64,000 nt of DNA, from IMG/VR virus record IMGVR_UViG_3300029310_000398, positions 1 through 64,000 of that record; one strand, 5' to 3'. A program made the position numbers and the translations under genes. Under the pieces are notes generated by a model, which did not search any database, had not been told where the DNA came from, and saw nothing but the letters and a program-made list of their open reading frames with translations. Shown piece by piece: positions 30 to 58,099 of the stretch (within the stretch, counting starts at the first letter, position 1; every line of letters begins with the position of its first letter). The stretch comes from a virus.

Positions 30-230
30 TTGACAAAATATCAAACTGTGGTAGTATAGAATTATAATTACGAAGCTATTTTTATAAAGGAGATTTATCT
101 CCGTTTTCAAGTCACCATACGTAAATTCAGACAGTTATCCCAATCTTGGGTGGCTGTCTTTTTTTATATATTTTTATACATTTTATATGCCCATAAGTCC
201 TTTTAATAGGCAGGGAGAAAGGAGAAAAAC
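30..230 (+). promoter_or_regulatory. Promoter-leader-terminator module, copy 1 (heads cassette 1)
   Basis: -35 TTGACA 30-35, 16-nt spacer, extended -10 TGgTAGTAT 49-57. A second perfect TATAAT lies at 63-68. Small hairpin GGAGA/TCTCC 89-102. Leader hairpin AGACAG..CTGTCT 129-159 with T-run to 165. Conserved CCC..GGGAGAAAGGAGAAA block runs up to ATG 231. Confidence 0.8.
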
Positions 231-3610: not shown

Positions 3611-3642
3611 GAAAAGCGTCCCTGACGGGGCGCTTTTCTTTT
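3611..3642 (+). terminator. intrinsic terminator closing cassette 1
   Basis: GAAAAGCGTCCC-TGAC-GGGGCGCTTTTC stem-loop with one mismatch, followed by TTTTCTTTT. Confidence 0.8.
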
Positions 3643-3654
3643 CGACTAAAACGA

Positions 3655-3855
3655 TTGACAAAATATCAAACTGTGGTAGTATAGAATTATAATCACGAAG
3701 CTATTTTTATAAAGGAGATTATCTCCGTTTTCCAAGTCACCATACGTAAATTCAGACAGTTATCCCAATCTTGGGGTAGCTGTCTTTTTTATATATTTTC
3801 ATACATTTTGAGTTCCCGTAAGTCCTTATCACAGGCAGGGAGAAAGGAGAAAACA
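3655..3855 (+). promoter_or_regulatory. Promoter-leader-terminator module, copy 2 (heads cassette 2)
   Basis: -35 at 3655-3660, TGgTAGTAT 3674-3682, TATAAT 3688-3693. Hairpin GGAGA-TTA-TCTCC 3714-3726. Leader terminator 3754-3785 with T-run to 3790. Conserved RBS block before ATG 3856. CGACTAAAA (3643-3651) abuts the -35. Confidence 0.8.
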
Positions 3856-4440
3856 ATGAGTATCACCAACACACGTCTCGCATACCTCTATCGTGACGCG
3901 GACAACTACAAGGTCCGGCATGAGGTCGTTTTCGCCGGCCAGATGTCGGAGGAAGAAAAGATGCGTATTATCGCCAGTCTCGATGACGGCGAATACTTCA
4001 TCCCCGGCCCTCTCGGTCTGAACGACGAGCGTTTCGGCAGTGAGACGGAGGCCGACCATCCCTTCTTTGAGTTTTGCTACTTTGAGGAGACCACGCATAA
4101 GCCGACGACCGACATCGCCATCGCCGAAATCGTCAAGCGGTTCGAGGACAATGCCCATCTCTGGAAGGATTACGAGACTTCCTTGGAAGACGTTGAACTC
4201 AACGAGGTAAACGACATCAAGATACCCGCACCTGACCCTGAGGAAGACCTCTCCCTTCGCGCCAAGTCCCTCCTGTTCGAAACGCTGGAGCTGTTCCGGA
4301 AGGAAATCAGCCCCAAGTTCTCTGACTGGAAGGATGCCGACGACTGGCTGTTCAGCAGCCTGAGTATCACCAAGGACGAGCTGCAGGCTATCTACGCCGA
4401 CCACGATGTGATGGTCTACGGCGAGTCTGCGGCGGATTGA
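3856..4440 (+). CDS. acidic hypothetical protein (194 aa)
   Basis: ATG 3856 follows GGAGAAAACA; the track start at 3808 reads through the leader. Very D/E-rich sequence, e.g. EDVELNEVNDIKIPAPDPEEDLS. Confidence 0.8.
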   Translation: MSITNTRLAYLYRDADNYKVRHEVVFAGQMSEEEKMRIIASLDDGEYFIPGPLGLNDERFGSETEADHPFFEFCYFEETTHKPTTDIAIAEIVKRFEDNAHLWKDYETSLEDVELNEVNDIKIPAPDPEEDLSLRAKSLLFETLELFRKEISPKFSDWKDADDWLFSSLSITKDELQAIYADHDVMVYGESAAD

Positions 4441-8661: not shown

Positions 8662-8693
8662 GAAAAAGCTCCCTTCGGGGAGCTTTTTCTTTT
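8662..8693 (+). terminator. intrinsic terminator closing cassette 2
   Basis: GAAAAAGCTCCC-TTCG-GGGAGCTTTTTC perfect 12-bp stem followed by TTTT. Confidence 0.85.
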
Positions 8694-8704: not shown

Positions 8705-8903
8705 TTGACAAAATATCAAACTGTGGTAGTATAGAATTATAATTACGAAGCTATTTTTATAAAGGAGATTATCTCCGTTTTCCAAGTCACCTTAAAGAAT
8801 CAAGACAGTTATCCCAATCTTGGGATGGCTGTCTTTTTTTATATATCTACATACATTTTTGTGTTCCCGTAAGTCCTTCAAGGCTGGGAGAAAGGAGAAA
8901 CAA
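8705..8903 (+). promoter_or_regulatory. Promoter-leader-terminator module, copy 3 (heads cassette 3)
   Basis: -35 at 8705-8710, TAGTAT 8727-8732, TATAAT 8738-8743. Small hairpin 8764-8776. Leader terminator 8803-8834 with T-run to 8840. RBS block before GTG 8904. Confidence 0.8.
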
Positions 8904-10067
8904 GTGAAAACCAAAGTTATCTTCGAGCGCACTGGCAAAAACATGGAGGCTATCCGTGAGGAAGTCATCGTCAACGGCGAAATCACTAAGGATGGTTTTG
9001 CTGTAATGATGGCAGCTACCAACGGCGATGGCACATTCGTACCGGCTGTTGTCGGTCTCCATGAGGTGAACGCCGCTGATGAGGCTGTGTATGCGAAGCT
9101 GGTCGGCATCGAATTCTGCGAAGCTAATCTCATCGCAACGTGCAGCGCGGACGTCCTCGTGGGGCGTTTCGTGAACGCGAACGGTGCGTGGGACGAGCTG
9201 CCCGTCAAGGGTCAGGCGCAGAGTGGTACTGCCCGTGTCGGCATTCCCTTTGTCTACGGACTTTACAACTTCACGCCGGTGCGTAACGGGGTGAACAAGA
9301 AGATTTCGTGGTGGATTTCCCGTCAGGGTATCGGCCACGCACTCTACTGCTTCACCTCCAACTACACCGCCGAAATCGGCTATCAGTTCCAGCACATCAG
9401 CAGCTATATCTCTATGTTCGAGGCACAGTTCGGCACCATCGACGGTAAGCCGGCGCCCGTACAGACACCTGCTGGTGGACGAAATGCGGATGATACCCGC
9501 TTCAAGGTCTACCCCAATGTAGGCCCTGCCTACATCGTCGAGGTTCCCTCTGCCGAGGTCGATAACATCGACGATTGGCTGAGTGAGCATATGGAGAGTG
9601 ATGCCACCTTTGTGGAGCTGAAAAGCACCGATTCCACCTCCAAAAACACGTCCTCTGACGACAATGCCGACATCCGCGTGCGGGACATCTGCGGCGATAA
9701 GTGCCAGTGCCATGTCTACTACGACAAGGCTTCCGGCCAGAACAAGATGCGTTTTTGGCTGAGAGCTGCTTTCCCCCGTCCCGCCGATATGATTGAGGTA
9801 CGCACGGCGCTGAAAGCGAACTTCGGCAGCGGCGCCGGCACTCACACCTATGATGATGGCTCCTTCGACGTCATCATTCAGAGGTTGGTGCCGTTCGCTT
9901 TCTCCAATGCGGATTTTGAGAGCTTCGCAGACAATGCGGTTACACTCATTGAGAATGTTCTGCACGCCAAGGCAACCAGTGTGAGCTGGAACGCCGGCCA
10001 TTGTGAGAGCGATGATGATGTACTTCTCACTGCGGAAGAGCAGAGCATCGTAAGCCGGCAAGCGTAA
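8904..10067 (+). CDS. hypothetical protein (387 aa)
   Basis: GTG 8904 has the same spacing from GGAGAAA as the ATGs of the other module copies. An alternative ATG lies at 8943. The track start at 8820 reads through the leader. Confidence 0.7.
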   Translation: MKTKVIFERTGKNMEAIREEVIVNGEITKDGFAVMMAATNGDGTFVPAVVGLHEVNAADEAVYAKLVGIEFCEANLIATCSADVLVGRFVNANGAWDELPVKGQAQSGTARVGIPFVYGLYNFTPVRNGVNKKISWWISRQGIGHALYCFTSNYTAEIGYQFQHISSYISMFEAQFGTIDGKPAPVQTPAGGRNADDTRFKVYPNVGPAYIVEVPSAEVDNIDDWLSEHMESDATFVELKSTDSTSKNTSSDDNADIRVRDICGDKCQCHVYYDKASGQNKMRFWLRAAFPRPADMIEVRTALKANFGSGAGTHTYDDGSFDVIIQRLVPFAFSNADFESFADNAVTLIENVLHAKATSVSWNAGHCESDDDVLLTAEEQSIVSRQA

Positions 10068-11420: not shown

Positions 11421-11873
11421 ATGGATGCCTTTTTGGAAAAGCTCAAAAAGTCTTTTGTCGAACGTTTTACGTCTTTGATGGAAGACAACGGCGACTCCGT
11501 GACGGAAGCTGCGAGGATTATCGGTGTTGCTCCGGAAGCTGTCTCAACGTGGCTGCGTGGGCGTATCGTGCCGAGCATTGATTACTTCGCTAAAATTGCG
11601 GATGTTTACAATGTCTCTGTTGATTATCTGCTGGGTCAATCTGAGACCCAGCAGATAAAAGACATCCCCGATGAGGCGGCATATCCGGCTGTTCCCGCAC
11701 GAGCCTTCTACAACTCGGCACTACAGCTTATGGCAAAACAGAATTCTCTCATTTCCCAACAGAATGCGTTGTTGCAGCAACAGAACGCTATTCTGAAGGC
11801 AATGCAGCAGAAGGCCACTGTTGAGAACACATCTCTGCCTTCGACAGATGTGCCTCTTGGTTTGCCATTTTGA
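11421..11873 (+). CDS. XRE-family helix-turn-helix transcriptional regulator (150 aa)
   Basis: GGGAGGTGCCCACA precedes ATG 11421. The segment SVTEAARIIGVAPEAVSTWLRGRIVPSIDYFAKIADVYNVSVDYLLG is a classic HTH_3 pattern. Q-rich C-terminal coil. Confidence 0.8.
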   Translation: MDAFLEKLKKSFVERFTSLMEDNGDSVTEAARIIGVAPEAVSTWLRGRIVPSIDYFAKIADVYNVSVDYLLGQSETQQIKDIPDEAAYPAVPARAFYNSALQLMAKQNSLISQQNALLQQQNAILKAMQQKATVENTSLPSTDVPLGLPF

Positions 11874-11946: not shown

Positions 11947-11976
11947 TTGACAGAGAGCGTACAAATGGGCTATAAT
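11947..11976 (+). promoter_or_regulatory. internal promoter for the toxin-antitoxin-like module
   Basis: TTGACA 11947-11952, 18-nt spacer, TATAAT 11971-11976, located 30 nt upstream of the 12007 gene. Confidence 0.6.
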
Positions 11977-12006: not shown

Positions 12007-12222
12007 ATGGAAGAATTCGTAAAGGGCGTATCCAAAACTTGCCTATATGAAGACCCTCACTGTGACGAAGAGGATGCGGAAATGGACCGTCGGATTTCGT
12101 CGGTAGCCTTTGAAGCCTATCAACGGGCAAAAATGAAAGGTATTCCTGTTGCTCGCTATGATGCAGAGAAAAAGTGTGCCTATTTACTGTATCCGGATGG
12201 GAGAATCGAGTATGTCAAATGA
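12007..12222 (+). CDS. small protein (71 aa), putative antitoxin partner of the zeta-like kinase
   Basis: GAAAGGAGGATACAACT precedes the ATG. Its stop overlaps the start of the P-loop gene (ATG 12212). The antitoxin role is inferred from position only. Confidence 0.5.
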   Translation: MEEFVKGVSKTCLYEDPHCDEEDAEMDRRISSVAFEAYQRAKMKGIPVARYDAEKKCAYLLYPDGRIEYVK

Positions 12223-12892
12223 GAAACAGCGGAAACCTTGCATTATCGTTTTCGCTGGGCCTAACGGGTCAGGTAAAAGCTCACTTACAAGTAGAGTAGA
12301 TATACTACCCCCGTATATCAACGCAGACGACATCAAAAAAGAAACTGGATGCAGCGATTTGGAAGCGGCACAGAAGGCTGATGCAATGCGCTTACAGTGT
12401 GTAGAATGGGGCGAAGATTTTACCTTCGAGACAGTTTTGTCCACGAATAAAAAACTGGAATTTCTAAAATATGCAAAAGAGCATGGGTATTTCATAAAAG
12501 GCTTTTTCGTTCTTACGAAAGACGCATCCGTAAACGTACTTCGTGTATGGGAACGTGTTCAATCTGGAGGCCACGACGTACCTGAAGAAAAGATTCGGTC
12601 TCGGTACGAAAAGTCTTTGGCAAGGGTTCAGGCCTTTGTTGACCTATGCGACATCTGCCATATTTATGACAACTCCGGCTCTTCAACGGATAGAATATTC
12701 AAGAAGGCACATGGCGACACCTATAAATGCAGGGAAAATGCTTTCTGGAGCAAACAGGAAATCTGTGACCTCGTAGGCATCAAAAGCAATAATGTTGGAG
12801 AACTTCTGCTTTCCGACTATGAGAAGAAGCTCTGTAATTCACTTAATAGTGCTACTGAGACTGAGGAGGACGTAGATAGAAATGACAAGTAG
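12212..12892 (+). CDS. zeta-toxin-family P-loop kinase-like protein (226 aa)
   Basis: Walker A FAGPNGSGKSS. The segment RVWERVQSGGHDVPEEKIRSRYEKS...IYDNS matches the zeta-toxin/COG4185 pattern as I recall it. Confidence 0.7.
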   Translation: MSNEKQRKPCIIVFAGPNGSGKSSLTSRVDILPPYINADDIKKETGCSDLEAAQKADAMRLQCVEWGEDFTFETVLSTNKKLEFLKYAKEHGYFIKGFFVLTKDASVNVLRVWERVQSGGHDVPEEKIRSRYEKSLARVQAFVDLCDICHIYDNSGSSTDRIFKKAHGDTYKCRENAFWSKQEICDLVGIKSNNVGELLLSDYEKKLCNSLNSATETEEDVDRNDK

Positions 12893-13818: not shown

Positions 13819-13848
13819 AAAGAGGCCCGAAAGGGCTTCTTTTTTTTT
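13819..13848 (+). terminator. intrinsic terminator closing cassette 3
   Basis: AAAGAGGCCC-GAAA-GGGCTTCTTT followed by a run of 9 T. Confidence 0.85.
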
Positions 13849-13861
13849 GGCTCTGTAATGA

Positions 13862-14061
13862 TTGACAAAATATCAAACTGTGGTAGTATAGAATTATAAT
13901 TACGAAGCTATTTTTATAAAGGAGATTATCTCCGTTTTCCAAGTCACCATACGTAAATTCAGACAGTTATCCCGTTTCGGGGATAGCTGTCTTTTTTATA
14001 TATTTTCATACATTTGTGTTCCCATAAGTCCTTATCATAGGCAGGGAGAAAGGAGAAATTC
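13862..14061 (+). promoter_or_regulatory. Promoter-leader-terminator module, copy 4 (heads cassette 4)
   Basis: -35 at 13862-13867, TAGTAT 13884-13889, TATAAT 13895-13900. Small hairpin 13921-13933. Leader terminator 13961-13992 has an altered loop and upper stem (CCCGTTTCGGGGA), with T-run to 13997. Confidence 0.8.
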
Positions 14062-14625
14062 ATGACTGACTATCCTAATGAAATTGCCCGTTTAGACGCA
14101 CAGCGTCGAAAGAATCACGATGCCACCGCCTATGAGGAGCTTGACAAGGCCTATACCGAATCCGGTCATACCGTGTTCATTATGGCACTCAACGCCCTCA
14201 TTTCGCTGGGACGTGATACCGTCGCGGCCATGGCGCATCCTGCGGCTATCGCTGCGACTATCCAAGGGAACATCTTTTCCGAGGATTTCAAGCTGGAGGT
14301 CGGACGTATCGCACTGATGATGGCAAACGCCGACATCGACGTTCTGTTGGCCGTTATTCAGCGCATAGTCGTCCCCTTCACTGACCCTCAGGGCAAGCGC
14401 ATCCCGTTCCTGCACCCCAACGGCGACGAGGAGGACGTCTGCCCCGTGTGTGGCGCCGAGGTCGAATATCAGGGCGACCGTGAAATCGACTACAACGATG
14501 GTACGGAGGTGAGCTGGGAATGCCCCGTCTGCAAGGCGTTTGGCAAGGCACTGTACCACGACACCTTCCTCCAGCACGATTCTGTGATTGATGGGAATGG
14601 TGATTGCGTACACGACCGTGTCTGA
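14062..14625 (+). CDS. hypothetical protein (187 aa) with a C-terminal zinc ribbon
   Basis: Conserved RBS block precedes the ATG. CPVCGAEVEY...WECPVCKAFG provides two CxxC pairs. Confidence 0.8.
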   Translation: MTDYPNEIARLDAQRRKNHDATAYEELDKAYTESGHTVFIMALNALISLGRDTVAAMAHPAAIAATIQGNIFSEDFKLEVGRIALMMANADIDVLLAVIQRIVVPFTDPQGKRIPFLHPNGDEEDVCPVCGAEVEYQGDREIDYNDGTEVSWECPVCKAFGKALYHDTFLQHDSVIDGNGDCVHDRV

Positions 14626-14667: not shown

Positions 14668-15291
14668 ATGACCAAGAACTTCAAGACGGTCGTTGAAGCA
14701 CTGAACGAGACCGGCTTCTATCTGGCCTTCTGCAATCTTGTCGTAAACAAGATTGTAAGAATCCCCATCAAGAAAATTATCTCCGCTGCGGAGGGAAACA
14801 TTGATGGCATTTCCAACTGGCTGGAACACGCTGTGAAAGACGCCTGCTCCGCTTTTAATCAGGACGTTACCATCGACGACCGGATTATGAAGATGGAGGG
14901 CGAGATTCTGCGTGTCACCCATTTCTGCTTTGACCCCCGCATCCGCGAGGCTTTCAAAGAAATGGGCTATGAGCGCATCTCAGAGGTGTACGAGTCCCGT
15001 GGCATCAACATCGAGGACACCGGTATGTTGGAGAAGGTCAAAAGCGTGTTCTGTACCTACGTCTTTCTGCTGAACCAGCAGGATAAGACGCTTGGTATCG
15101 ACCTCTCCGTTGTCCCTTCTGTGGGTTCCTACAGCATTCGTTTCAACGAGTGCATTCAGGACTCCATCGTATTCAAGGACGAGGCGGCAGCGAAAGCATT
15201 TGCCAAGGCAAACGGATTGGAGAAGCCGTTCATTTCCTTCTACAAGATGACTGCTTATTGGCAGCCCCTTGAGGAAGGAGATGCGGTGTGA
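14668..15291 (+). CDS. hypothetical protein (207 aa)
   Basis: GAAAGGAGAAAGCACC precedes the ATG. Confidence 0.75.
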   Translation: MTKNFKTVVEALNETGFYLAFCNLVVNKIVRIPIKKIISAAEGNIDGISNWLEHAVKDACSAFNQDVTIDDRIMKMEGEILRVTHFCFDPRIREAFKEMGYERISEVYESRGINIEDTGMLEKVKSVFCTYVFLLNQQDKTLGIDLSVVPSVGSYSIRFNECIQDSIVFKDEAAAKAFAKANGLEKPFISFYKMTAYWQPLEEGDAV

Positions 15292-15731
15292 GCACTTCTC
15301 AAACCACTTCCCTGCCGCTTGCTGCTGTCCGCATTAAAAATGCACGGCTGTCTCTGGAACTATCTCAGAGTCAGCTTGCAGAAAGGTGTGAGGTGACTCC
15401 ACAGACCATCTACAAGTATGAGTCTGGGCGAGTGGAGAATATCCCCCTGAAGACTTTGGAACGCTTCGCCGAGGTACTGGGCGTCTCCCCTGCTTATCTG
15501 GCGGGCTGGACGAACTCACCTGCCGGCACCAGCGTTCTGGATATTCAGGTACGAGGAGCCACTCTGCTCTGTGCCACCTGCCCCATCTGCGGAAGCCTGA
15601 AGTTCGGCCCGAAGCACGGAAGTGCCTATGGACCCGAAGCCCGTTGCTCCGACTGCGGTACAACATTCCGTCTCGATGCCGACCAGTTTCCTCTGAAGAC
15701 TGTTCGGCTTGGTATGTCACTGCTGGCCTGA
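15288..15731 (+). CDS. XRE-family HTH regulator fused to a zinc ribbon (147 aa)
   Basis: GTG overlaps the upstream stop. LSQSQLAERCEVTPQTIYKYESGRVENIPLKTLERFAEVLGVSPAYLAGW is an HTH_3 pattern. C-terminal CATCPICG....CSDCG. Confidence 0.8.
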   Translation: MSTSQTTSLPLAAVRIKNARLSLELSQSQLAERCEVTPQTIYKYESGRVENIPLKTLERFAEVLGVSPAYLAGWTNSPAGTSVLDIQVRGATLLCATCPICGSLKFGPKHGSAYGPEARCSDCGTTFRLDADQFPLKTVRLGMSLLA

Positions 15732-19621: not shown

Positions 19622-19657
19622 AAACTTTTCACAGCAAAGCACTGATTTTTCCACTAA

Positions 19658-19688
19658 GAAAAGCTCCTTCGGGGGCTTTTCTTTTTTT
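19658..19688 (+). terminator. intrinsic terminator closing cassette 4
   Basis: GAAAAGCTCC-TTCG-GGGGCTTTTC followed by TTTTTTT. Confidence 0.85.
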
Positions 19689-19936: not shown

Positions 19937-20115
19937 TTGACAAAATATCAAACTGTGGTAGTATAGAATTATAATTACGAAGCTATTTTTATAAAGGAGA
20001 TTATCTCCGTTTTCCAAGTCACCACATAAATTCAGACAGTTATCCCAATCTTGGGGTAGCTGTCTTTTTTTATATATTTATTGCATTTTTCGACAACAAA
20101 GAAAGGAGAAACACC
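19937..20115 (+). promoter_or_regulatory. Promoter-leader-terminator module, copy 5 (heads cassette 5)
   Basis: -35 at 19937-19942, TAGTAT 19959-19964, TATAAT 19970-19975. Small hairpin 19996-20008. Leader terminator 20034-20065 with T-run to 20071. This copy lacks the CCCGTAAG..GGGA block and has a plain GAAAGGAGAAA RBS. Confidence 0.8.
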
Positions 20116-20298
20116 ATGAAGTACAAGAAGCTCACCAAACATGAGCGAGACACGCACCCGTCCATTCACTGTACGGGCAGCGTGCGCGGCATGAAGGAAC
20201 GTGGGTTGTGGGACAAGGATGCCGAGTGTGTTCGCTGCGGCAACCACATCTACAACCTGTCCGTTACCATCCCGCCCTACCCTGCTGATGGCTGCTGA
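20116..20298 (+). CDS. hypothetical protein (60 aa)
   Basis: GAAAGGAGAAACACC precedes the ATG. Contains C..(n)..CVRCG cysteines. Confidence 0.65.
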   Translation: MKYKKLTKHERDTHPSIHCTGSVRGMKERGLWDKDAECVRCGNHIYNLSVTIPPYPADGC

Positions 20299-20637: not shown

Positions 20638-20843
20638 GTAAGCATCGTTGGACTATCGAGGAACTGAAGAACGTCAATGACGCTCAGTTCGCTATGGCGA
20701 TTCTGATGGAACGCCGCAGTGAGTTATCGAATCCCTACACCCCGTTCGCACAGCGCCTTACCAGCGTCATCAATACGCTGACGGACATGGCTGTGGATGG
20801 CGGGCTGACAGACGAAGAAAGGAGTAAGAACAATGGCCGCTGA
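20634..20843 (+). CDS. hypothetical protein (69 aa); donor of the duplicated C-terminal tail
   Basis: GAGGTGAGCAGAA precedes GTG 20634. Its C-terminal 35 aa (YTPFAQRLTSV.NTLTDMAVDGGLTDEERSKNNG) recur at the end of the next gene. Confidence 0.65.
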   Translation: MSKHRWTIEELKNVNDAQFAMAILMERRSELSNPYTPFAQRLTSVINTLTDMAVDGGLTDEERSKNNGR

Positions 20844-21619
20844 AATGAGACTTTACCGCGTAACGGTTATCGGCAGCAATGCCGAAAGGAAGCGCGGAAA
20901 AGTGGTGGAAGAGGTCACAGTCAAGGTCGGAACCAAGTGGCTGACGGACGATAACGGTCGGCGTTACTACAAGGTGCCGCTTGAGGACGCAAACCGAAAC
21001 CTCTACTTCCAGCTCAACACCATGTACTGCATGGACTACCGGCTGTATCAGACAGAGCAGGCCGCCAAGGATTACCTTCGGCAAGCGGAACTGCGTGTGG
21101 CGCTTTGCAAGGCGGTGAGCAATTTCGGCTTCAACGCTCCCCTGCCTGTGCTGGAGAAGGTCATGGATACGCTGAAATACACCCCGTTCGCACAGCGTCT
21201 CACCAGCGTCTTCAATACGCTGACGGACATGGCTGTGGATGGCGGGTTGACGGACGAAGAAAGGAGCAAGAACAATGGCTGTTGAGATGAGACTCTACCG
21301 CGTGCCTATTATCGGTAGTAATGCCGAACGGCGGCACGGAAAGGTGGTGGATGAGGTCACGGTCAAGGTTGGAACCAAGTGGCTGACAGACAATAGAGAC
21401 TGTCGATACTACAAGGCTCCTTCCGAAGATGCGAACAGAAATCCCTATTTCCAGCAGAACTCCATGTACTGGAGTACAGATTACCGGCTGTATCAGACGG
21501 AACAGGCTGCCAAGGACTATCACCATCAGGCGGAATTGCTCATAGCTCTTCGCAGAGCCGTTGGCGACTTCGGCTTCAACGCCCCGTTGACCGTGCTGGA
21601 GAAGGTCATGGACACTCTC
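20736..21619 (+). repeat. tandem segmental duplication, 2 x 442 bp
   Basis: Unit 1 (20736-21177) and unit 2 (21178-about 21619) both begin TACACCCCGTTCGCACAGCG. By eye they align at roughly 85-90% identity at the ends and less in the middle. Confidence 0.8.
20833..21285 (+). CDS. hypothetical protein (150 aa), paralog A with a grafted tail
   Basis: GAAAGGAGTAAGAACA precedes the ATG. Residues 1-115 are paralogous to 21275-21643. The tail duplicates the C-terminus of 20634-20843. Confidence 0.7.
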   Translation: MAAEMRLYRVTVIGSNAERKRGKVVEEVTVKVGTKWLTDDNGRRYYKVPLEDANRNLYFQLNTMYCMDYRLYQTEQAAKDYLRQAELRVALCKAVSNFGFNAPLPVLEKVMDTLKYTPFAQRLTSVFNTLTDMAVDGGLTDEERSKNNGC

Positions 21620-21643
21620 AAGGAAGGCGGATGCTTGAAATGA
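21275..21643 (+). CDS. hypothetical protein (122 aa), paralog B
   Basis: GAAAGGAGCAAGAACA precedes the ATG. The opening MAVEMRLYRVPIIGSNAER.. parallels MAAEMRLYRVTVIGSNAER.. Confidence 0.7.
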   Translation: MAVEMRLYRVPIIGSNAERRHGKVVDEVTVKVGTKWLTDNRDCRYYKAPSEDANRNPYFQQNSMYWSTDYRLYQTEQAAKDYHHQAELLIALRRAVGDFGFNAPLTVLEKVMDTLKEGGCLK

Positions 21644-25946: not shown

Positions 25947-26150
25947 TTGACAAAATATCAAACTGTGGTAGTATAGAATTATAATTACGAAGCTATTTTT
26001 ATAAAGGAGATTATCTCCGTTTTCAAGTCACCACAAAGAATCAAGACAGTTACTTCCCTTTTCTGGGAAGTGACTGTCTTTTTCTATATATAACATTTTT
26101 TGGATTCCCGTAAGTCCTTATTACAGGCTGGGAGAAAGGAGAAAAAGACC
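25947..26150 (+). promoter_or_regulatory. Promoter-leader-terminator module, copy 6 (heads cassette 6)
   Basis: -35 at 25947-25952, TAGTAT 25969-25974, TATAAT 25980-25985. Small hairpin 26006-26018. Leader terminator 26044-26079 has a rebuilt 15-bp stem (AGACAGTTACTTCCC/GGGAAGTGACTGTCT), with T-run to 26084. RBS block before ATG 26151. Confidence 0.8.
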
Positions 26151-28028
26151 ATGGCAAATTGTGTACTCTTCAGAAGTAAGAAAGGGTTCGACATCAGTAC
26201 CCTCCCCTTCGGGCTGAACCAAATGCCTAACCGCAGCACGACGACGTTCTCCAAGTGGAATGCGCCGCAGAGACCGTCTATGAAGGGGCAATCTACGCTG
26301 CACGCCTATGCAACCAGAGCATTTCTGGCATATCTGGGTATCCCCGGCTTTGTTGAGGACTATGCTCTGCTGCAGGTCTCTGACAATCTGTGGAGTGCTG
26401 AGTTCCGCGACAACTCTACCGGCACGACCGTGAAGACGCTGCTGTTCACTTATAAGACGGTGTTCCAGACCAATGCGCCTTCTGTCGGTAAACTGGGTGC
26501 CGCCGTGACGATGCCTTCCGGCCAGTGGGCGGGTACTCCGTCTATCGGTTCTGAGTCTGACGACATCGACCTCAGCGGCGCTATGCTGGCAATGACACCC
26601 CAAGTCCTGTCCCTCTACTACGAGGCACCGGAGTTGGCTGTCGTGGATGACAACTCGGAACTCAAGACCGTCCGTGACGAGATTCTCGCCCTGTGCGCCA
26701 AGTACCCCGCTGATTGGGGCGCTCACATGGTGGAAGCATCTACCGCCTTCAACTATCTGTATATCTTCAGTGATATGTTCTACTATGGCTGTGAGACGGG
26801 CAAAGTCCCGCTGAACGTCCAGAACGGGAACATGGATACGTTGACGCGGCAGAAGGTCAACAACGGCGCTTTCAACGGCACCATCATTGTCGGCACACCT
26901 ACCATCATCGGTGGCACAATGGCCGCCAACAGCACCTCAAGCTCTACCAAGGGCATGACCGTGAAGGCTGCCAAGCTCAGATACGCAGCGTGGGCTGACG
27001 CACACCCGTGGACGCCCGACGAGGAACTGCTGATTCCCACCTTCGATGATGACTTCAAGGTTCAGCCTGAGGTTATCGAGATGGCCGACAAAATCGTCGC
27101 TACGTCCAATATGCGCGTACCCTTCCGCAACTTCCTGTGGCGCGGCATTACCGGTTACGGTAAGTCTACCGGCACGAAGGTTCTGGCGTGCATCCTGCAC
27201 ACTCCTCGGCTGGAGCTGACCTGCCATACCGATATGCTGGCGAAGGACCTGATTTCTGAGTTCGTCCCCTGCAATCCCGTGGATGCGGCGCGTGGAGAAC
27301 TTCCCACGTTCGATGAGATTTCCTTCGACCCCGAATCCGCGTGGACGACCATGACGGGCGAGGATGGCACGGGCATCACATCTGAGGAATGCTTCGCAAA
27401 GTATTCTGAGCTGTTGGTTGCCCGCGCCGGCTGCACTTCCCCTGTGAAGGTGGTCGAGTCCGCTTTCGTGAAAGCCGTTTCTCGCGGTTACATCTGCGAG
27501 ATTCAGGAAATCAGCCGTATCAAGGACTCCGGCGTTATGGTCGCACTGAACCAGTACGACCTGCCGGGTGCTATGATTCCGCTGGTGGACGGCGGTTTCA
27601 CGTATCGTCAGAAGGATGCCGTTGTGGTATTCACGGATAACGTCGGCTATGCTTCCTGCCGCCCCATCGACCAGTCTGTTATTCGGCGTTGCCGGATGAT
27701 TTTCGACAGCACTGAAATCGAAAAGCAGGCTATGCTGGAGCGCATCAAGTACAACACCGGCTGGAGCCGTGACGACAAGACGCTGAACGCTCTGTACGAC
27801 GTGTTCGAGCAGATTCGGAGCTACTGCGCCGACAAGGAAATCACGGAAGGTTCCTGCACTATTTGCGAGCTGGAGTCTCTCGTCTGCTGTGTGCAGTGTG
27901 ACGACAGATACATGGCTCATTTGGAAGATTACATTGACACGTGCCTCATCGCCAAATGCACGAATGACCCCGTCGAGCAGAACGAGATTCGTTCCAATGC
28001 GGCGCAGGTCATCAGCAAGGTGGCGTAG
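26151..28028 (+). CDS. AAA+ ATPase, MoxR/CbbQ-like C-terminal module with a roughly 330-aa unknown N-terminal region (625 aa)
   Basis: Walker A WRGITGYGKSTGTK. Walker-B-like YICEIQEISRIK. A downstream VWA partner is the usual MoxR pairing. Confidence 0.6.
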   Translation: MANCVLFRSKKGFDISTLPFGLNQMPNRSTTTFSKWNAPQRPSMKGQSTLHAYATRAFLAYLGIPGFVEDYALLQVSDNLWSAEFRDNSTGTTVKTLLFTYKTVFQTNAPSVGKLGAAVTMPSGQWAGTPSIGSESDDIDLSGAMLAMTPQVLSLYYEAPELAVVDDNSELKTVRDEILALCAKYPADWGAHMVEASTAFNYLYIFSDMFYYGCETGKVPLNVQNGNMDTLTRQKVNNGAFNGTIIVGTPTIIGGTMAANSTSSSTKGMTVKAAKLRYAAWADAHPWTPDEELLIPTFDDDFKVQPEVIEMADKIVATSNMRVPFRNFLWRGITGYGKSTGTKVLACILHTPRLELTCHTDMLAKDLISEFVPCNPVDAARGELPTFDEISFDPESAWTTMTGEDGTGITSEECFAKYSELLVARAGCTSPVKVVESAFVKAVSRGYICEIQEISRIKDSGVMVALNQYDLPGAMIPLVDGGFTYRQKDAVVVFTDNVGYASCRPIDQSVIRRCRMIFDSTEIEKQAMLERIKYNTGWSRDDKTLNALYDVFEQIRSYCADKEITEGSCTICELESLVCCVQCDDRYMAHLEDYIDTCLIAKCTNDPVEQNEIRSNAAQVISKVA

Positions 28029-37821: not shown

Positions 37822-37909
37822 TGGCGGAGAGAGTGGGATTCGAACCCACGGATGCTTTCACATCGCCGGATTTCAAGACCGGTGCTTTCGACCACTCAGC
37901 CATCTCTCC
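37822..37909 (-). tRNA. tRNA-Ser (anticodon UGA), type II with a long variable arm and encoded CCA
   Basis: The reverse complement reads GGAGAGATGGCTGAGTGGTCGAAAGCACCGGTCTTGAAATCCGGCGATGTGAAAGCATCCGTGGGTTCGAATCCCACTCTCTCCGCCA. It has a 7-bp acceptor stem, a GGTTCGAATCC T-arm and a CTTGAAA anticodon loop. The anticodon-stem closing pair is U-U. Confidence 0.9.
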
Positions 37910-52468: not shown

Positions 52469-55400
52469 TTACTCGGCGAACTGCTCCTTCTTGCGACGGA
52501 ACATGAACATCGCCGTAGCGCAGCAAGCGATGGCACTGAACGTACCCAGCATAGCCCACAGGCCGATGCCTTCATCGCCGGTCTGGACGCTATCGCGGAA
52601 GTACACCGTCTGAGCGCCGTCCATCAGGTCGTTGTGCGTTGCAATGACATTGCCGGCTTCGGCCTTGCCTTCGTACAGTGTCTCGAACACAACGATGGCG
52701 TGGTCCTTCAGCTTGGATGCGTCGAACTTGAACGTAACGTTCACAGCGCCATTGGCGGACTTGGGAGTGAAGGTGGTGGAGGCGGTAATCAGGTTGCCGT
52801 TGTTGTCCTTCAGGGCAACGCCGGTATCCTTATCCATCAGCGTACCAACCAGCACGTAGGTCTTACCCACGGTCAGGCCGGTGTAGTTGACAGTATCCAC
52901 GATTTTCACGTTCTTGCCAGCCACGGAGTTCTTCTTGTCCTTGCCGTCGAAGGTGGCAGTCGTAGAGATGCTCGGACCGGAATAGGTCGGGATGCGCTTG
53001 ATAGTCACGGTCTGGTCAACATCGTTGATGTCGGTGTGAGTAGCGACCGTAGTGCCATTGCGGGTCAGAGTCTCGAACACGACCAGTGTCTTGCCGCCCA
53101 GAATGGACGCATCGAACACGAAGCTCACATCCACAGTACCGTCAGAAGACTTAGCCTCAAATTCGGTAGTAGCGGTGATTTCCTTGTTGTTGCGGCCCAG
53201 AACGGGCTTGCCGGTAGCTTTGTCCATCAGAGTGCCGGTCACGGTATACTTATTACCAGCAATCAGGCCCTTGTAGGACACGGTATCAATCAGCTCAACC
53301 TTGCTGTAGGCCCAGAATTCCTTCTTGCCATCAGCAGCGTTCTTGGCAGAGGTCTTGATTTCGGGATTATTGACGGTCACGGTCTGGTCAGCATCATTGA
53401 TGTCGGCGTGGACAGCGATTTCAATATCCTTGTACTGCAGGGACTCGAACACGACGATGGACTCGCCACGCAGCAGAGAAGCGTCGAGGACGAAGATGAC
53501 GTCCACGGTGCCCTTGGAAGCCTCGGCGGTGAAGGTGGTGGAAGCGGTAATTTCCTTACCGTCCTTATCCTTCAGAGGCTCGTTGGTGGCCTTGTTCATC
53601 AGCTTACCGGAGACAGTGTACTTCTCACCGACAATCAGGCCGGAGTAAGACACGGTATCCTTGATTTCAGCGCGAGCTTCGGGGTCAAGAGTCTTGCCGT
53701 TGGTGGCGTTGTTCACGGCCTTGGTGCCGATTTCTGGAACGCCGATGGTAACGGTCTGGCCCTCATCGTTGATGTCCTCATGGCTCACAAACACGGGCTT
53801 ATCGGAGTCACCGGGAACAATCTCGTTGCCCAGATACACACGCTCGAATACCACCAGAGACTTGCCGGCCAGCTCAGTGGCATTGAAGACGAACTTCACG
53901 TCCACAGTGCCAGTAGCCTGCTCAGGAGTGAACACCTTGTAGGCGGTAATGGGCTCGCCCTTGGCATCGGTGACGGGCTTGCCGGTTGCCTTATCCATCA
54001 GAGTACCGATAGCAATGAACTCCTTACCCACAGGCATATTCTCATAGGAGATGGTATCAACCAGAATCACATCGTCCAGAGGCATAAATTCCTTGCCGCC
54101 GGCGGAGTTCTTCGCGGTAGTACCAATCTTGGGATTCAGGACGGTCACGGTCTGGTCAACATCGTTGATGTCGGCATGAGTCGCAACGACCTTCTCACCA
54201 CGCTTCAGGTCCTCGAAAGCAACGAGGGACTCGCCGCCCAGCAGAGAAGCATCGAAGGTGAACTCCAGCTCCACATAGCCGGTAAAGTCAGCCTCGGCCT
54301 TGAAGGTCTTGGAAGCAGTGATGCGGTTGCCCTGAGCATCCAGCAGAGGCTCACCGGTGGACTTGACCACCAGATAGCCCTCGACCGTATAGGTCTTGTT
54401 GGGGATGACATCAGTGCATTCCACCTTATCAATGATAGTGACGGAGGTGGAGGGAATGATTTCCTTGTTGCCGTCCTTATCGGTGGCAGTGGTCTTGACC
54501 TTGGGGGTCACGGCCTCATCCTCAGCGACGATGCTCACGGTCACAAGACCGGTCTCAGCGTCCAGAGAGATGGTGTCGGGAGTGACATCAAAGCGGATGG
54601 GAGTGTCCATCAGCTCGTAGCCCTTGGGGGCCTTGGTCTCGACCAGATGATAGCCCTCGCCATAAGGCAGGACCAGAGGAGTCACAAAGTAACCCTCGTC
54701 ATTGGTCACGAATGTATCAATATACTTGACAGTGGGATAAGTGACCTTCTGAGACACCTTGTTGCCATCGGGGTCATAAATCTGGAATTCAGCGCCGCCC
54801 CAAGGAATGACTTCGCCATCGAACTCATCGACCTTCACAACGCGCAGATACGCAGTGATGGGGCCGTTGTTGACAGCCAAATCATGATGGTCACGGTCAA
54901 CTTCGCCAACCAGAACGGTGAACTCAGGCGCGAGCCCCGCACCCTTATCCCCGGCCTTGGTCTGATGCACCACATAGGTGCCGTAGGGCAGCTCGATGGA
55001 CTTGCCGCTGTAACCCAAGACGTTGGTCGTCAGGATACCGCGCTCGTCATCCTTAGCGTTCTCGTAAGAGCCGGCGGACTGCAGCCAATACTTGAACTCT
55101 GCACCGCCCTCGAACTTAGCGGGACCGGAGGTGCCGTCGGAGATGAACTTGGTGATGGCGAAGGTGCCGCGATTGATGACCTCGACAGAGGTAATCTGGG
55201 GAGCAACGTTGTGTTCGATACGGTAGTTCTCCGGCTCGGCGCCGACGCGATACACGCCCTCATCAATCTGATAGCCAGTGGGCGCCTTGATTTCACGGAT
55301 GGTGTAATCATAGCCGCAGATGTACTCGTCAGTGGTGAGCTTGCCATCGCTGCCGATAACGTACTCCTTCACCAGCTCGTCACCCTTATACAGACCGTAC

Positions 55401-58099
55401 ACAGCACCCTCAAAGACACCATCACCGCGAGGGATGTTGCCAGTCTCAGCGTCCGTCTTCTCCACAGTGACCTTCCACTTCTTCAGTACGTTGCTCACAG
55501 CCGTATCGGTCGTCTTCTGGTACTCGACCACAAGACCTTCCTGAACAGCGGGGATGACGTACTTCACAGCGGTATCGACCTCTTCCAGCGTGTAGTTGTT
55601 GCCAATCAGGACGTCCTTGAAGATGGCGACGCCGTCAGCGTTGGTGGTAGCGGTCATGTCCACAGCATCGCCGGAAATGGCCGTGCCGTACAGACGGAAG
55701 GTAATACCCTCGACCAGACCATCCTCGGAGGTCTTAGTCACGCGCAGGTCGCCGCGCTTGAGCTTGTTGTAGACTTCCACATCAGTGGTGTTGCCCAGCG
55801 TCACCTTGACACCAGCCTTCACCTCAGGAACAAGGTACTTCGCAGCGGTGTTGACTTCCTCAACGCTGTAATTGTTACCAATCAGAACGTTATTGAAAGT
55901 AGCGATACCGTTTGCGTCAGTAACAGCGGTCATGTCAACGGTCTCACCGTTGATGGCCGTACCGTACAGCCGGAACGTGATACCGGCGGTCTTACCGTCC
56001 TCAGAGGTCTTCTTGACCTCAACGGCACCGCGAGCCAGCTTGTTCTCGAACTGCAGGTTGGTCGTCTTGTTCAGAGAAATGGTCACACCCTCCTGAATGG
56101 CGGGAACGACATATCTCTCAGCGGTGTTGATTTCCTGCACGGTGTAGTTGTTACCGATAAGGATATCCTTAAACAGAATCACACCGTTCTCATCGGTGGT
56201 AGCCGTCTCGTTGACAGCCGCACCGGAGATGGAAGTACCGGACAGGCGGAAAGTCATACCGGACACGAAGCCATCTTCGGAAGTCTTCGTGATTTTCAGA
56301 TTACCGCGAGCCAGCTTATTCTCGAACTTGGCTTCAGTGGCGGCGTTGTACTCAACGACAACACCAGCCTGAACTTCAGGAACCACATACTTTGCAGCGG
56401 TATTGATTTCCTCAAGTTTGTAGTTCTTACCAATGGGAACGTTGTTGAAAGTGGCAACGCCGTTCGCATCGGTAGTAGCAGTCATGTTCACGGACGTACC
56501 GGCAGCGGAAGTGCCGGACAGCCGGAAGGTATGACCGGCAACCTGACCATCCTCAGACATCTTCGTAATCTTGACAGTGCCCTTCTTCAGAACGTTGTTG
56601 AAGCTCACTGTTTTGACGTCTCCGATTGCGATGGTCACAGTCTGAGATGTCGTCGGAATGTAGTTTTCCGACGTCTTCTCTGTCACAGTGTACGTACCGG
56701 GCTGCAGGTCAGCAATGGTGATTTTGCCGTTGGCAGCAGTTGCCACGGTTTTGCTGAAACCGTTGGGACCGGTCACGGTGAAGCTCACGCCGCCAACCTT
56801 GCTATCCTCAGAGGTCTTGGCAATGGTCAGGTCTCCGGTGGTCTTCGTGACCTTTGCTCTGACGTAAGCCGTAACAGGGTCAGGCCAACCATTCAGAGCA
56901 ACGCAGTCCTGCTTGCCTCCGCCAGCGACAAGAACATAGGCGTTGACGCTATCGGGGTCAATCACATTACCCTCGGAAGGATTGGAGGCGATACCATCCA
57001 GCATACTCTTCGCTGCCTCGGCTGTGGCGTTGATTGTCAGATTGTAACCGCTTTGGATTGTTTCCACCCCGGCCAGATTGAACGTAAAGTCTTCGAAGTT
57101 CGGAAGAACTCTGTTTGAGTCGTACTCTGTTGCTGTCCACTTAGAGCCATCCCACTCAAGTTCAATATCTTTTCTGAAATCTGTGGGACGGTAAACAGCA
57201 AAGCTGGGGATTTCAGCGTGCTGGTTAATCATGCTCCAAATGTAATCGTGAGCAGCCTTGATATAAGGTGCAACTTCAGGGTCATAAGCATGACCGGGAC
57301 CCACAAACAGGTCACTCAAGTCTGAGTAAGGGCCAACAATCTCCCAAATTACTTCCTGAGTAGCGCACCATGCATACGTGCCATTGCCGGCATAAGACAG
57401 AAGTGTTCTATCATCCACACCACCATATCCGTAGGCAAGAGCAAGACGGACATCATCGCTACCCCAAAAAGTATTTGCATCAACAGAAGTGCCACTACCG
57501 GGAGCTCCCTTGTGAGGTTCGATACAATAAGCGGGCTGGCCGTTGAAATATTTTACAACAGCGCTTGTATACGGCTCAAATGTTGACAGCCACGTACTGT
57601 TGTAACTCATATCGTCACCGGTCGTAATGGTTCCGGAGGAACGAGCGGGTGCTCTCATGGCACTGATAGCTCTGGGTGCGTTCTGCGCTGACCCGTAAAG
57701 GACGGAAACGCTCACAGGCGTATCTTCTCCAGCGTAGGGGTCCTGAAGCCCCTCCTCCGTCACGGACGTTTTGACAGACTCATCCTTACCAGCCCCGGAT
57801 TTATCTTCACCCAGAGCAGCCTGCCCATTTTCGGAGGAGCTTTCTTTATCCTCAATGACGGGAGAATCAGACTTCTCACTGTCATCAGGATTCTTTGTGT
57901 CTTCTGTGGCGTTATAAACCAAATCGCCATCGCCAGAATCAGTCTTCCCGACCTCCACAGGGTCAGAAACACTTCCGATAACGACCGAATTACTGCCGCC
58001 ATCCGCATCCGCTGCATACACGGATGTCGGGAGCAATCCGACCACCATCACCAGCGTCAGCAACATAGCTACTACGCCACGCAGCTTCTTGTGTTTCAT
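52469..58099 (-). CDS. giant cell-wall-anchored adhesin (1876 aa): signal peptide, thioester-type head, CnaB/SpaA-type repeats, Thr-Gln ester-bond (VaFE-type) repeats, sorting signal
   Basis: Signal peptide MKHKKLRGVVAMLLTLVMVVGLLPTSVYA. AYCIEP (Cys192) and ATQEVIW (Gln248) resemble the TQxA thioester domain. The repeats carry HxDxxDxxQT motifs such as HADINDVDQTVTV. C-terminal VQTGD, hydrophobic helix and RRKKE. Confidence 0.85.
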   Translation of the reverse strand: MKHKKLRGVVAMLLTLVMVVGLLPTSVYAADADGGSNSVVIGSVSDPVEVGKTDSGDGDLVYNATEDTKNPDDSEKSDSPVIEDKESSSENGQAALGEDKSGAGKDESVKTSVTEEGLQDPYAGEDTPVSVSVLYGSAQNAPRAISAMRAPARSSGTITTGDDMSYNSTWLSTFEPYTSAVVKYFNGQPAYCIEPHKGAPGSGTSVDANTFWGSDDVRLALAYGYGGVDDRTLLSYAGNGTYAWCATQEVIWEIVGPYSDLSDLFVGPGHAYDPEVAPYIKAAHDYIWSMINQHAEIPSFAVYRPTDFRKDIELEWDGSKWTATEYDSNRVLPNFEDFTFNLAGVETIQSGYNLTINATAEAAKSMLDGIASNPSEGNVIDPDSVNAYVLVAGGGKQDCVALNGWPDPVTAYVRAKVTKTTGDLTIAKTSEDSKVGGVSFTVTGPNGFSKTVATAANGKITIADLQPGTYTVTEKTSENYIPTTSQTVTIAIGDVKTVSFNNVLKKGTVKITKMSEDGQVAGHTFRLSGTSAAGTSVNMTATTDANGVATFNNVPIGKNYKLEEINTAAKYVVPEVQAGVVVEYNAATEAKFENKLARGNLKITKTSEDGFVSGMTFRLSGTSISGAAVNETATTDENGVILFKDILIGNNYTVQEINTAERYVVPAIQEGVTISLNKTTNLQFENKLARGAVEVKKTSEDGKTAGITFRLYGTAINGETVDMTAVTDANGIATFNNVLIGNNYSVEEVNTAAKYLVPEVKAGVKVTLGNTTDVEVYNKLKRGDLRVTKTSEDGLVEGITFRLYGTAISGDAVDMTATTNADGVAIFKDVLIGNNYTLEEVDTAVKYVIPAVQEGLVVEYQKTTDTAVSNVLKKWKVTVEKTDAETGNIPRGDGVFEGAVYGLYKGDELVKEYVIGSDGKLTTDEYICGYDYTIREIKAPTGYQIDEGVYRVGAEPENYRIEHNVAPQITSVEVINRGTFAITKFISDGTSGPAKFEGGAEFKYWLQSAGSYENAKDDERGILTTNVLGYSGKSIELPYGTYVVHQTKAGDKGAGLAPEFTVLVGEVDRDHHDLAVNNGPITAYLRVVKVDEFDGEVIPWGGAEFQIYDPDGNKVSQKVTYPTVKYIDTFVTNDEGYFVTPLVLPYGEGYHLVETKAPKGYELMDTPIRFDVTPDTISLDAETGLVTVSIVAEDEAVTPKVKTTATDKDGNKEIIPSTSVTIIDKVECTDVIPNKTYTVEGYLVVKSTGEPLLDAQGNRITASKTFKAEADFTGYVELEFTFDASLLGGESLVAFEDLKRGEKVVATHADINDVDQTVTVLNPKIGTTAKNSAGGKEFMPLDDVILVDTISYENMPVGKEFIAIGTLMDKATGKPVTDAKGEPITAYKVFTPEQATGTVDVKFVFNATELAGKSLVVFERVYLGNEIVPGDSDKPVFVSHEDINDEGQTVTIGVPEIGTKAVNNATNGKTLDPEARAEIKDTVSYSGLIVGEKYTVSGKLMNKATNEPLKDKDGKEITASTTFTAEASKGTVDVIFVLDASLLRGESIVVFESLQYKDIEIAVHADINDADQTVTVNNPEIKTSAKNAADGKKEFWAYSKVELIDTVSYKGLIAGNKYTVTGTLMDKATGKPVLGRNNKEITATTEFEAKSSDGTVDVSFVFDASILGGKTLVVFETLTRNGTTVATHTDINDVDQTVTIKRIPTYSGPSISTTATFDGKDKKNSVAGKNVKIVDTVNYTGLTVGKTYVLVGTLMDKDTGVALKDNNGNLITASTTFTPKSANGAVNVTFKFDASKLKDHAIVVFETLYEGKAEAGNVIATHNDLMDGAQTVYFRDSVQTGDEGIGLWAMLGTFSAIACCATAMFMFRRKKEQFAE
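52595..54502 (-). repeat. five tandem ester-bond-type Ig repeats (aa 1200-1835, about 125-130 aa each)
   Basis: Recurrent pattern ..TTA.......(I/L)(I/V)DTV.Y.(G)L..G..Y...G.LM(D/N)KATG.P.......I.A...F......G.V.V.F.F(D/N)AS.L.G...VVFE......H.DI(N)D..QTV. Confidence 0.8.
55478..56581 (-). repeat. four tandem 92-aa CnaB/SpaA-type repeats (aa 507-874) within the adhesin
   Basis: Units of G.(L/V)K(I/V)TKTSEDG...G.TFRL.GT...G..V.MTA.TD.NG.A.F..V.IG.NY...E..TA.(K/R)Y..P repeat with a period of about 276 nt. A more divergent unit lies at aa 422-506. Confidence 0.8.

Follow-up and report, generated by a model that had tools for sequence, protein, structure and literature searches.

Why would operon after operon of a mobile element begin with a strong promoter whose transcript runs into an intrinsic terminator about 100 nt downstream, and what would let the genes behind it be expressed? 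The question is raised by a stretch of 64,000 nt (positions 1 to 64,000 of the IMG/VR record IMGVR_UViG_3300029310_000398; hereafter the window), part of a 191,807-bp contig, in which six near-identical cassettes stand on the plus strand with the TTGACA of their promoters at 30, 3655, 8705, 13862, 19937, and 25947. The element in the window comes from human gut bacteria and is a large mobile DNA element in which many operons begin with this same cassette. Expression of these operons probably depends on overriding the cassette terminator, in a way that resembles, without fully matching, known antitermination systems. The anatomy of the cassette is given here for its second copy, on which an earlier note about this DNA had focused.

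3611 to 3639, plus strand: terminator of the preceding operon, GCGTCCC-TGAC-GGGGCGC followed by TTTTCTTTT, just 5' of the cassette (read from the sequence).
3655 to 3682, plus strand: sigma-A-type promoter with the -35 element TTGACA (3655-3660), a 16-nt spacer, and the -10 element TAGTAT (3677-3682); 10 of 12 matches in the promoter scan, with TG present.
3672 to 3676, plus strand: TGTGg, the -16 or extended -10 element at the end of the spacer, with TGG at 3674-3676.
3683 to 3687, plus strand: variable 5-nt linker, AGAAT in this copy.
3688 to 3693, plus strand: perfect -10-like hexamer TATAAT, a candidate sigma-dependent pause element, at predicted positions -1 to +5.
3694 to 3713, plus strand: (C/T)ACGAAG(C/A)TATTTTTATAAA, nearly invariant initially transcribed sequence, predicted to be unpaired, +6 to +25.
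3714 to 3726, plus strand: 5-bp hairpin with the arms GGAGA (3714-3718) and TCTCC (3722-3726) and the loop TTA (3719-3721), +26 to +38.
3727 to 3741, plus strand: semi-conserved tail GTTTTCCAAGTCACC of the pattern GTTTTC..AGTCAC, giving a short U run directly 3' of the hairpin, with GTCACC at 3736-3741.
3754 to 3790, plus strand: strong intrinsic terminator found by the terminator scan, with the 14-pair stem AGACAGTTATCCC/GGGGTAGCTGTCT and a T run, at about +66 to +102.
3806 to 3858, plus strand: conserved hairpin of the 5' untranslated region (5'-UTR) and ribosome-binding site, TTCCCGTAAGTCCTT..AGGCAGGGAGAAAGGAGAAAACA-ATG; the start codon of a 194-aa gene lies at 3856.

How closely do the copies agree? 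A 42-mer taken from the core matched six places in the window with at most one mismatch, where 0 matches were expected (100 shuffles). From TTGACA to GTCACC, the alignment of the six copies shows only three differing places, namely T or C at 3694, an extra loop T in copy 1, and the presence or absence of one C in GTTTTC(C). The invariant 87-bp core described in the earlier note therefore holds within this element; across relatives it does not, as both the spacer and the hairpin sequence change. The stretch that follows TATAAT, TACGAAGMTATTTTTATAA, is almost invariant among copies, and positions 3694-3713 read CACGAAGCTATTTTTATAAA in copy 2. Twelve variable bases separate the tail from the terminator in this copy, and the sequence upstream of the -35 element is not conserved among copies. 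Hairpin-plus-T runs equivalent to the one at 3611-3639 also lie 5' of cassettes 3, 4, 5, and 6, with terminator scan matches among these upstream hairpins at 8662-8689, 13819-13842, and 19656-19683.

Where would transcription begin? A consensus promoter scan returned one plus-strand promoter per copy, and this promoter, TTGACA-16-TGgTAGTAT, is the only complete sigma-A-type promoter on the plus strand of the cassette, in agreement with the earlier assignment. In the same scan, neither a -35 partner 16-18 nt upstream of TATAAT nor a TG in front of it was found. Therefore, the predicted and most likely start is A3689, seven bases past the -10 element, and TATAAT would then occupy about -1 to +5, in the initially transcribed region where it had been placed before. 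TATAAT also forms one half of the palindrome ATTATAAT (window positions 3686-3713, at the same place in every cassette), which yields a TATAAT on the minus strand, and the scan gave a minus-strand TTTATA-16-TATAAT match (10 of 12) at every copy. The palindrome is a possible divergent promoter, the transcript of which would run into the upstream, roughly symmetrical terminator; its minus-strand -35 element is weak and, as read from the sequences, drops to 3 of 6 matches in the class B relatives among those described next.

Exact-pattern scans recovered the cassette from 36 stretches of IMG/VR contigs (54-190 kb) and from 40 human-gut metagenome stretches, and two further scans with patterns that did not include TATAAT added more relatives, so that 133 unique copies from IMG/VR and human-gut metagenome contigs were gathered in total. 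Within these, a subset of 91 unique copies was picked only by TTGACA-N13-TGGTAGTAT and by features beyond +40. Because the first gene after the cassette belongs to only 16 families across the relatives, we regard these contigs as syntenic relatives that carry cassettes before about 16 kinds of operon. The core sequence, sought with two patterns, occurred in 0 of 185,579 GTDB species genomes; blastn against annotated phages and plasmids gave no match to the cassette; and only a tRNA exceeded the Rfam gathering threshold in the window, the best cassette match (E = 0.35) lying far below it. A truncated cassette was found in one IMG/VR contig (L138; 3300045988_183936, minus strand 600-700), where the same promoter and TATAAG are followed at once by a different strong terminator, without the conserved leader or the small hairpin and in the orientation opposite to that of the other copies listed for this contig. 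At a further locus (L084, 6334-6480), two small membrane proteins (135 and 128 aa) are encoded behind a promoter of this type (TTGACA-N13-TGGTAGTAT) that has no TATAAT, leader, or terminator; not every promoter of these elements is gated.

Which parts of the cassette are held constant? TATAAT was kept in 90 of the 91 copies chosen without it as a search term, the sole change being TATGAT, and TACGAAG was kept in 90 of the 91 as well, the single change being the C at 3694 of the window. The linker between the two hexamers takes at least seven forms (AGAAT, AGAAG, AGTAG, AATAG, ATTAG, GGTAG, and GATAG), linker positions 30 and 32 being polymorphic (54/37 and 49/42 in the 91 copies), and the spacer between the -35 and -10 elements is the most variable stretch, while the promoter hexamers are invariant in all copies. 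What counts, in an element of about 51% G+C, is the strict retention of the candidate pause hexamer beside neighbours that vary. Moreover, in class B the spacer varies among copies of one and the same contig while the sequence from -10 to +38 is constant (L090, L094, L095, and L119). Because of this pattern, recombinational homogenisation alone is insufficient as an explanation, and the constancy of -10 to +38 beside a varying spacer argues for selection rather than mere homogenisation. The truly invariant sequence extends from the extended -10 element (TGGTAGTAT) to about +22 and corresponds roughly to the DNA covered by an initiating polymerase. A core from -17 to +22 is common to the ~190-kb elements and to a small element resembling an integrative and conjugative element (ICE); these two backbones are otherwise unrelated and, within the sequence compared, have in common only a lipoprotein gene and a MobC-like gene. 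The occurrence of the core in two nearly gene-disjoint backbones is consistent with the host polymerase itself reading the core.

Is the small hairpin real? It is the only structure predicted between +1 and +67 (-5.7 kcal/mol), and its fold energy alone is no different from that of shuffled sequences (z = -0.5). We regard it as real because its stem shows compensatory changes in the relatives. Specifically, the stems in the 133 unique copies are GGAGA/UCUCC, GGCGC/GCGCC (or GUGCC), GGUGC/GCACC, GGAGC/GCUCC, and GGAGG/UCUCC, that is, four Watson-Crick variants plus G-U variants, and the loops are UUA, UUUA, GUA, AAAA, AUUA, and AUAA (the pairs were counted by script, as MAFFT places the 5' arm one column apart in different classes). 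Judged by these variants, the predicted hairpin is conserved as a structure and not as a sequence, and an RNA hairpin fits better than a sequence-specific, ops-like DNA site. In copy 2 it starts 20 nt past the end and 26 nt past the beginning of TATAAT, close to the spacing of 25 nt given earlier. The terminator stem followed by at least five U is found in 133 of the 133 unique copies; 12 pairs are kept, and compensatory double changes occur at 9 of these 12 (32 copies). No alternative antiterminator fold was predicted in the leader, and therefore read-through would have to act on the polymerase. Two further roles for the leader were considered and rejected: pairing of UCUCCGUUUUCC with the downstream Shine-Dalgarno region GGGAGAAAGGAGA, since cassettes with the GCGCC arm keep an identical ribosome-binding site, and a leader peptide, since no start codon lies at a usable distance from GGAGA and class D has no GGAGA.

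How, then, might the operons be expressed? Because a strong terminator lies about 100 nt past a strong promoter in every copy, the default product would be a short RNA and the operon would need read-through. The explanation that we rank first, and that we put forward tentatively, is that the cassette is a multi-copy promoter-proximal pause/antitermination gate. Specifically, the host sigma-A polymerase would start at a strong, probably constitutive promoter, most likely at A3689, and sigma region 2 would re-bind TATAAT on its non-template strand, detaining the polymerase at about +12 to +17; the sequence from +6 to +25, the covarying hairpin from +26 to +38, and then GUUUUC would complete a site for factor loading or pausing. 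Unmodified polymerase would yield only the RNA of ~100 nt, halted at the terminator at about +66 to +102, and polymerase made terminator-resistant inside the leader would go on to express the downstream operon. Because the identical module precedes about 16 first-gene families, with six cassettes in the window, a single factor, the existence of which we infer, could act on all of them and switch on the whole operon set together. In its full form, this proposal would be an antitermination regulon in which many operons of a ~190-kb conjugative-plasmid-like element of gut Clostridia are poised by identical cassettes and freed jointly by one polymerase-modifying factor unrelated to Q, AlpA, N, and NusG paralogs; that full form we hold to be doubtful.

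Several points weigh against such a gate. The start is a prediction, and the argument fails if transcription begins downstream of TATAAT. At least 33 unrelated AT-rich phage promoters carry TATAAT 5 nt past the -10 element and run straight into a ribosome-binding site, with no terminator; therefore, the motif alone is not diagnostic. A conserved factor-binding site in the -35/-10 spacer is absent, the spacer varying between classes and within one contig, and the TNYG motif of the scrunched pause is absent as well, +14 to +17 being TATT. No Q, AlpA, NusG-paralog, or sigma-like family was found among the ~70 proteins of the window (64 kb of the 192-kb contig) or in the best 25 of 45 families from 147 neighbouring protein clusters. 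Most operons end in a terminator of their own just 5' of the next promoter, which is odd for a processive system, as a fully processive antiterminator would make these terminators redundant. Finally, sigma-dependent pausing coupled to antitermination is, to our knowledge, undescribed in Firmicutes. The suggestion of a lambda PR'-like pause and loading point in the earlier note is partly supported: the geometry and the pattern of constraint agree with it, and the variable spacer, the absent TNYG, and the failure to find a Q, AlpA, or NusG paralog among the window proteins weigh against it.

What else could hold this DNA constant? The explanation that ranks next after the gate, although we consider it unlikely, is an operator: the invariant DNA from -10 to about +22 would be bound by an element-encoded repressor, and TATAAT would be kept as part of the operator. 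With the same low likelihood, arrival in a new cell would set off all the cassette promoters until the repressor silenced them jointly, the terminator serving as an attenuator or insulator. Such silencing would resemble that by SPBRE/MrpR, EGeRS2/Reg, or Aca repressors. There is precedent for a large Firmicute mobile element that repeats a single conserved element at many of its promoters (PMC10516654, PMC8708921), and the gene content is like that of establishment or anti-defence functions (SSB, a DUF4942 methylase-like protein, toxin-antitoxin pairs, and Fic). Candidate repressors are at hand, in that two XRE-type helix-turn-helix (HTH) genes lie within cassette-driven operons of the window (11421-11873 and 15288-15731) and the cassette of the small ICE-like elements stands between two HTH genes. 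However, these four HTH proteins are only 21-25% identical and differ in their recognition helices, yet the large and the small elements have identical DNA cores. A regulator common to both kinds was sought and rejected, only the lipoprotein and the MobC-like protein being common to them within the sequence compared and the HTH proteins not being orthologous. The conserved stretch does contain TTATAA-N14-TTATAA, but the left TTATAA is GTATAA in class B, and no extended dyad or direct repeat was found in the stretch. An operator would, moreover, leave both the strong covarying terminator of the 133 copies and the covarying hairpin unexplained.

The covariation of the hairpin is accommodated by an RNA site of the nut or LoaP type, in which an RNA-binding antiterminator riding on the polymerase would recognise the unpaired AUAAUUACGAAGMUAUUUUUAUAA together with the 5-bp hairpin; we judge this improbable, and likewise improbable that TATAAT is kept as an RNA or promoter-escape sequence and not as a target of sigma. 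The hairpin is structurally conserved with lineage-specific stems and loops, much as boxB differs among lambda, P22, and phage 21. Nut sites and LoaP leaders have a similar order, with a conserved linear element first, then a small hairpin, and last a terminator. Gram-positive conjugative elements often employ termination and antitermination (PMC8191782, PMC11658703). Still, no N-like or NusG-like protein was found among the window proteins or the neighbouring families listed, and no Rfam family matched. The loops differ while the flanks are identical, and therefore one protein could bind them all only by disregarding the loop.

Could the cassette instead be a portable expression unit that recombination keeps uniform, as in the PeSLs of T4-type phages, with no special role for TATAAT past initiation? 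We think this improbable too, and give as little credence to its two accounts of TATAAT, namely that it is kept as the AT-rich start region of a strong promoter or as the -10 element of a minus-strand promoter derived from ATTATAAT. PeSLs are repeated strong promoters with stem-loops that act as recombination sites (PMC2839356, PMC4122927), the minus-strand match is present at every copy, and the tandem-hexamer layout recurs in the phage promoters mentioned above. However, linker and spacer vary freely within and between contigs and TATAAT does not, and the minus-strand -35 element is weak, with only 3 of 6 matches left in class B. The anatomy differs as well: the stem-loop of a PeSL lies before the start and its flanks are variable ORFans, whereas the cassette terminator lies at +66 and is followed by ~16 conserved families.

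Least likely, and in our view very improbable, is that the terminated transcript of ~100 nt is itself the product (a regulator, decoy, or sponge) and that the downstream genes are fed by low constitutive read-through, for although a strong promoter, an unpaired 5' part, a small hairpin, a U-rich stretch, and a terminator form a typical small-RNA layout, copies are many per element, and the truncated L138 copy keeps only promoter, TATAAG, and terminator, the 64-kb window contains no complementary target of at least 11 nt (only scattered 10-mers), Rfam gave no match, UCUCCGUUUUCC does not covary with the downstream Shine-Dalgarno region to which it was predicted to pair, and every copy lies exactly 5' of an operon with a conserved ribosome-binding-site leader.

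The other cassettes of the window are arranged as follows.

30 to 165, plus strand: cassette copy 1, 5' of the gene at 231-1262; TATAAT 63-68, hairpin 89-102, terminator 129-165.
8705 to 8840, plus strand: cassette copy 3, 5' of the gene at 8904-10067; TATAAT 8738-8743, hairpin 8764-8776, terminator 8803-8840.
13862 to 13997, plus strand: cassette copy 4, 5' of the gene at 14062-14625; TATAAT 13895-13900, hairpin 13921-13933, terminator 13961-13997.
19937 to 20071, plus strand: cassette copy 5, 5' of a Cys/His-rich open reading frame (ORF) of 60 aa at 20116-20298; TATAAT 19970-19975, hairpin 19996-20008, terminator 20034-20071.
25947 to 26083, plus strand: cassette copy 6, 5' of an AAA-type gene at 26151-28028; TATAAT 25980-25985, hairpin 26006-26018, terminator 26044-26083.

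The terminator of copy 6 has a different stem, the changes in which are compensated. After cassettes 1, 2, 3, 4, and 6, the ribosome-binding site GAAAGGAGAAA is immediately preceded by the 5'-UTR hairpin TTCCCGTAAGTCCTT..AGGCAGGGAG (181-233, 3806-3858, 8864-8907, 14012-14064, and 26098-26150); the same hairpin is present at 1524-1567, before an internal gene at 1564 that lacks a promoter cassette. Possible roles of this hairpin are in RNA stability, in processing, and in translation. Cassette 5 is without this hairpin, and the 60-aa Cys/His-rich protein encoded behind it is conserved in classes A and B; no family match was found for this protein, a possible small regulator. Within operon 3, a perfect consensus promoter, TTGACA-18-TATAAT, lies at 11947-11976, between the XRE-type HTH gene at 11421-11873 and an ORF of 71 aa that is followed by a Zeta-toxin-like gene (12212-12892); this promoter and its neighbours look like a self-contained toxin-antitoxin module.

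What kind of element carries the cassettes? All six lie within a block of plus-strand genes from 1 to 33.8 kb. Most window genes have no family match; the families recognised are a DUF4942 methylase-like protein, PemK and Zeta toxins, two XRE-type HTH proteins, DUF4314, DUF3232, an AAA/VWA pair, Fic, and HD, and a YopX gene adjoins the window. The relatives add SSB, a primase-like protein, YqaJ, helicases, and further toxin-antitoxin pairs. A tandem duplication at 20736-21621, with repeats of 294 nt and 143 nt that are 83% and 77% identical, yields the adjacent paralogous genes 20833-21285 and 21275-21643, both of which weakly match a phage ProQ C-terminal-like domain. The other half of the window encodes a topoisomerase, a nuclease, a tRNA, and two very large surface proteins. 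The tRNA gene (37825-37909, minus strand, 62 bits) marks the strand switch between the cassette block and the minus-strand genes. The surface proteins (52469-58099 and 59881-64000, both minus strand) contain repeats of ~375-390 nt and T-Q ester, SpaA, and thioester domains, and the complete one (52469-58099) has a signal peptide, a VQTGD sortase-type motif, a membrane anchor, and a basic tail; large surface proteins with such a VQTGD-type anchor point to a Clostridia-type host. Between them lies the lipoprotein gene (58352-59539); no other window gene was found in the small ICE-like elements.

The small ICE-like elements (class D, loci L037-L069) have the gene order HTH, cassette, HTH, Rep-like, FtsK-like; at L039 (4768-5748), for instance, a GGCGC-AAAA-GCGCC cassette stands between two XRE-type HTH genes. 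The class D cassette has an untranslated leader of ~270 nt past the terminator. A gene for a MobC-like relaxosome protein is present in the large and the small elements alike (L043 1996-2325, and L063), which suggests that these elements are mobilisable or conjugative, though IMG/VR lists the contigs as viral. The gene content, too, looks more like that of a large conjugative or mobilisable element than that of a virus.

What would follow if the cassette is a pause/antitermination gate? A logic used at single sites in lambdoid phages and at one Pseudomonas locus would be reused as a portable module that gates accessory or establishment operons, and such gating would operate in uncultivated mobile elements of human gut Firmicutes. 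The regulon, if it exists, would be without precedent in Firmicutes as a sigma-dependent pause-loading system, and without precedent anywhere as a massively multi-copy one. The 133 variants amount to a natural mutational scan of a candidate pause/loading site, and the cassette is a clear object for in vitro tests with a Firmicute polymerase and could lead to a new antitermination or repression factor. Under the rival explanations too, such as an operator or a small RNA, the cassette would mark a regulon and aid the annotation of genes that are almost all of unknown function.

How does the cassette compare with known systems? The PeSLs of T4-type phages are likewise repeated modules of ~100 bp, with a near-consensus early promoter, a stem-loop terminator, and a ribosome-binding site (PMC2839356, PMC4122927). 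However, the PeSL stem-loop, placed 5' of the promoter or within it, halts transcription that arrives from upstream, whereas the cassette terminator lies inside its own transcript; we rejected membership on this anatomy, with the terminator at +66 and ~16 syntenic downstream families, and with PeSLs flanking variable ORFans. The conAn system of the pLS20 family and canT of Tn916 share with the cassette the control by termination and antitermination in Gram-positive conjugative elements, but they are large structured RNAs (260-600 nt and ~340-450 nt, respectively) that act in cis and occur once per element (PMC8191782, PMC11658703); a leader of ~62 nt with one 5-bp hairpin in many copies does not belong to them, and membership was rejected on anatomy here as well. 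SPBRE/MrpR of phage SPbeta and EGeRS2/Reg of plasmid p576 are alike in placing one conserved element at the promoters of many accessory or establishment operons of a large Firmicute mobile element (PMC10516654, PMC8708921); they differ in being short operators (15 bp, or TTATCCCnnTTATCCC) with a known repressor and in having no transcribed leader, hairpin, or promoter-proximal terminator.

Closer in layout are lambda N/nut and LoaP, in which a small hairpin of lineage-specific sequence and a conserved linear leader sequence also lie upstream of terminators. Yet by reading, the cassette has no boxA consensus, and no N-like or NusG-paralog gene was seen; its terminator follows without an intervening gene, and a -10-like box is not part of nut or LoaP sites. 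Specifically, no small arginine-rich N-like candidate was identified, and of the features of an RfaH or LoaP target, neither a NusG/KOW family match in the window proteins nor an ops sequence in the transcribed leader was found.

The Q and AlpA systems, finally, have one site per element and conserved factor-binding DNA between the -35 and -10 elements, whereas the cassettes provide many sites with a variable spacer, in a Gram-positive (Clostridia-like) host unlike theirs. No Q or AlpA homologue was found among the ~70 window proteins, TNYG is absent from the cassette, and the covarying RNA hairpin is extra. The gap between the -10 element and the second hexamer is 5 nt in the cassette and 6 nt at lambda PR'. 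In P. aeruginosa PalpB, the -10-like box CACGAT lies at -1 to +5, a terminator lies downstream, and AlpA loads at a sigma-dependent pause (PMC9371919); lambda PR' has a -10-like box and a pause at +16/17, T-N-Y-G stabilising the scrunched pause (PMC9191641). Like the cassette, both combine a strong sigma-70-type promoter with a -10-like hexamer at the beginning of the transcript (predicted for the cassette) and a terminator shortly downstream. In both, this terminator leaves a short RNA unless the polymerase is modified, and the same would hold for the cassette. With the start at its predicted place, the layout of the cassette matches that of lambda PR'-tR' and, even more, that of PalpB-tB.

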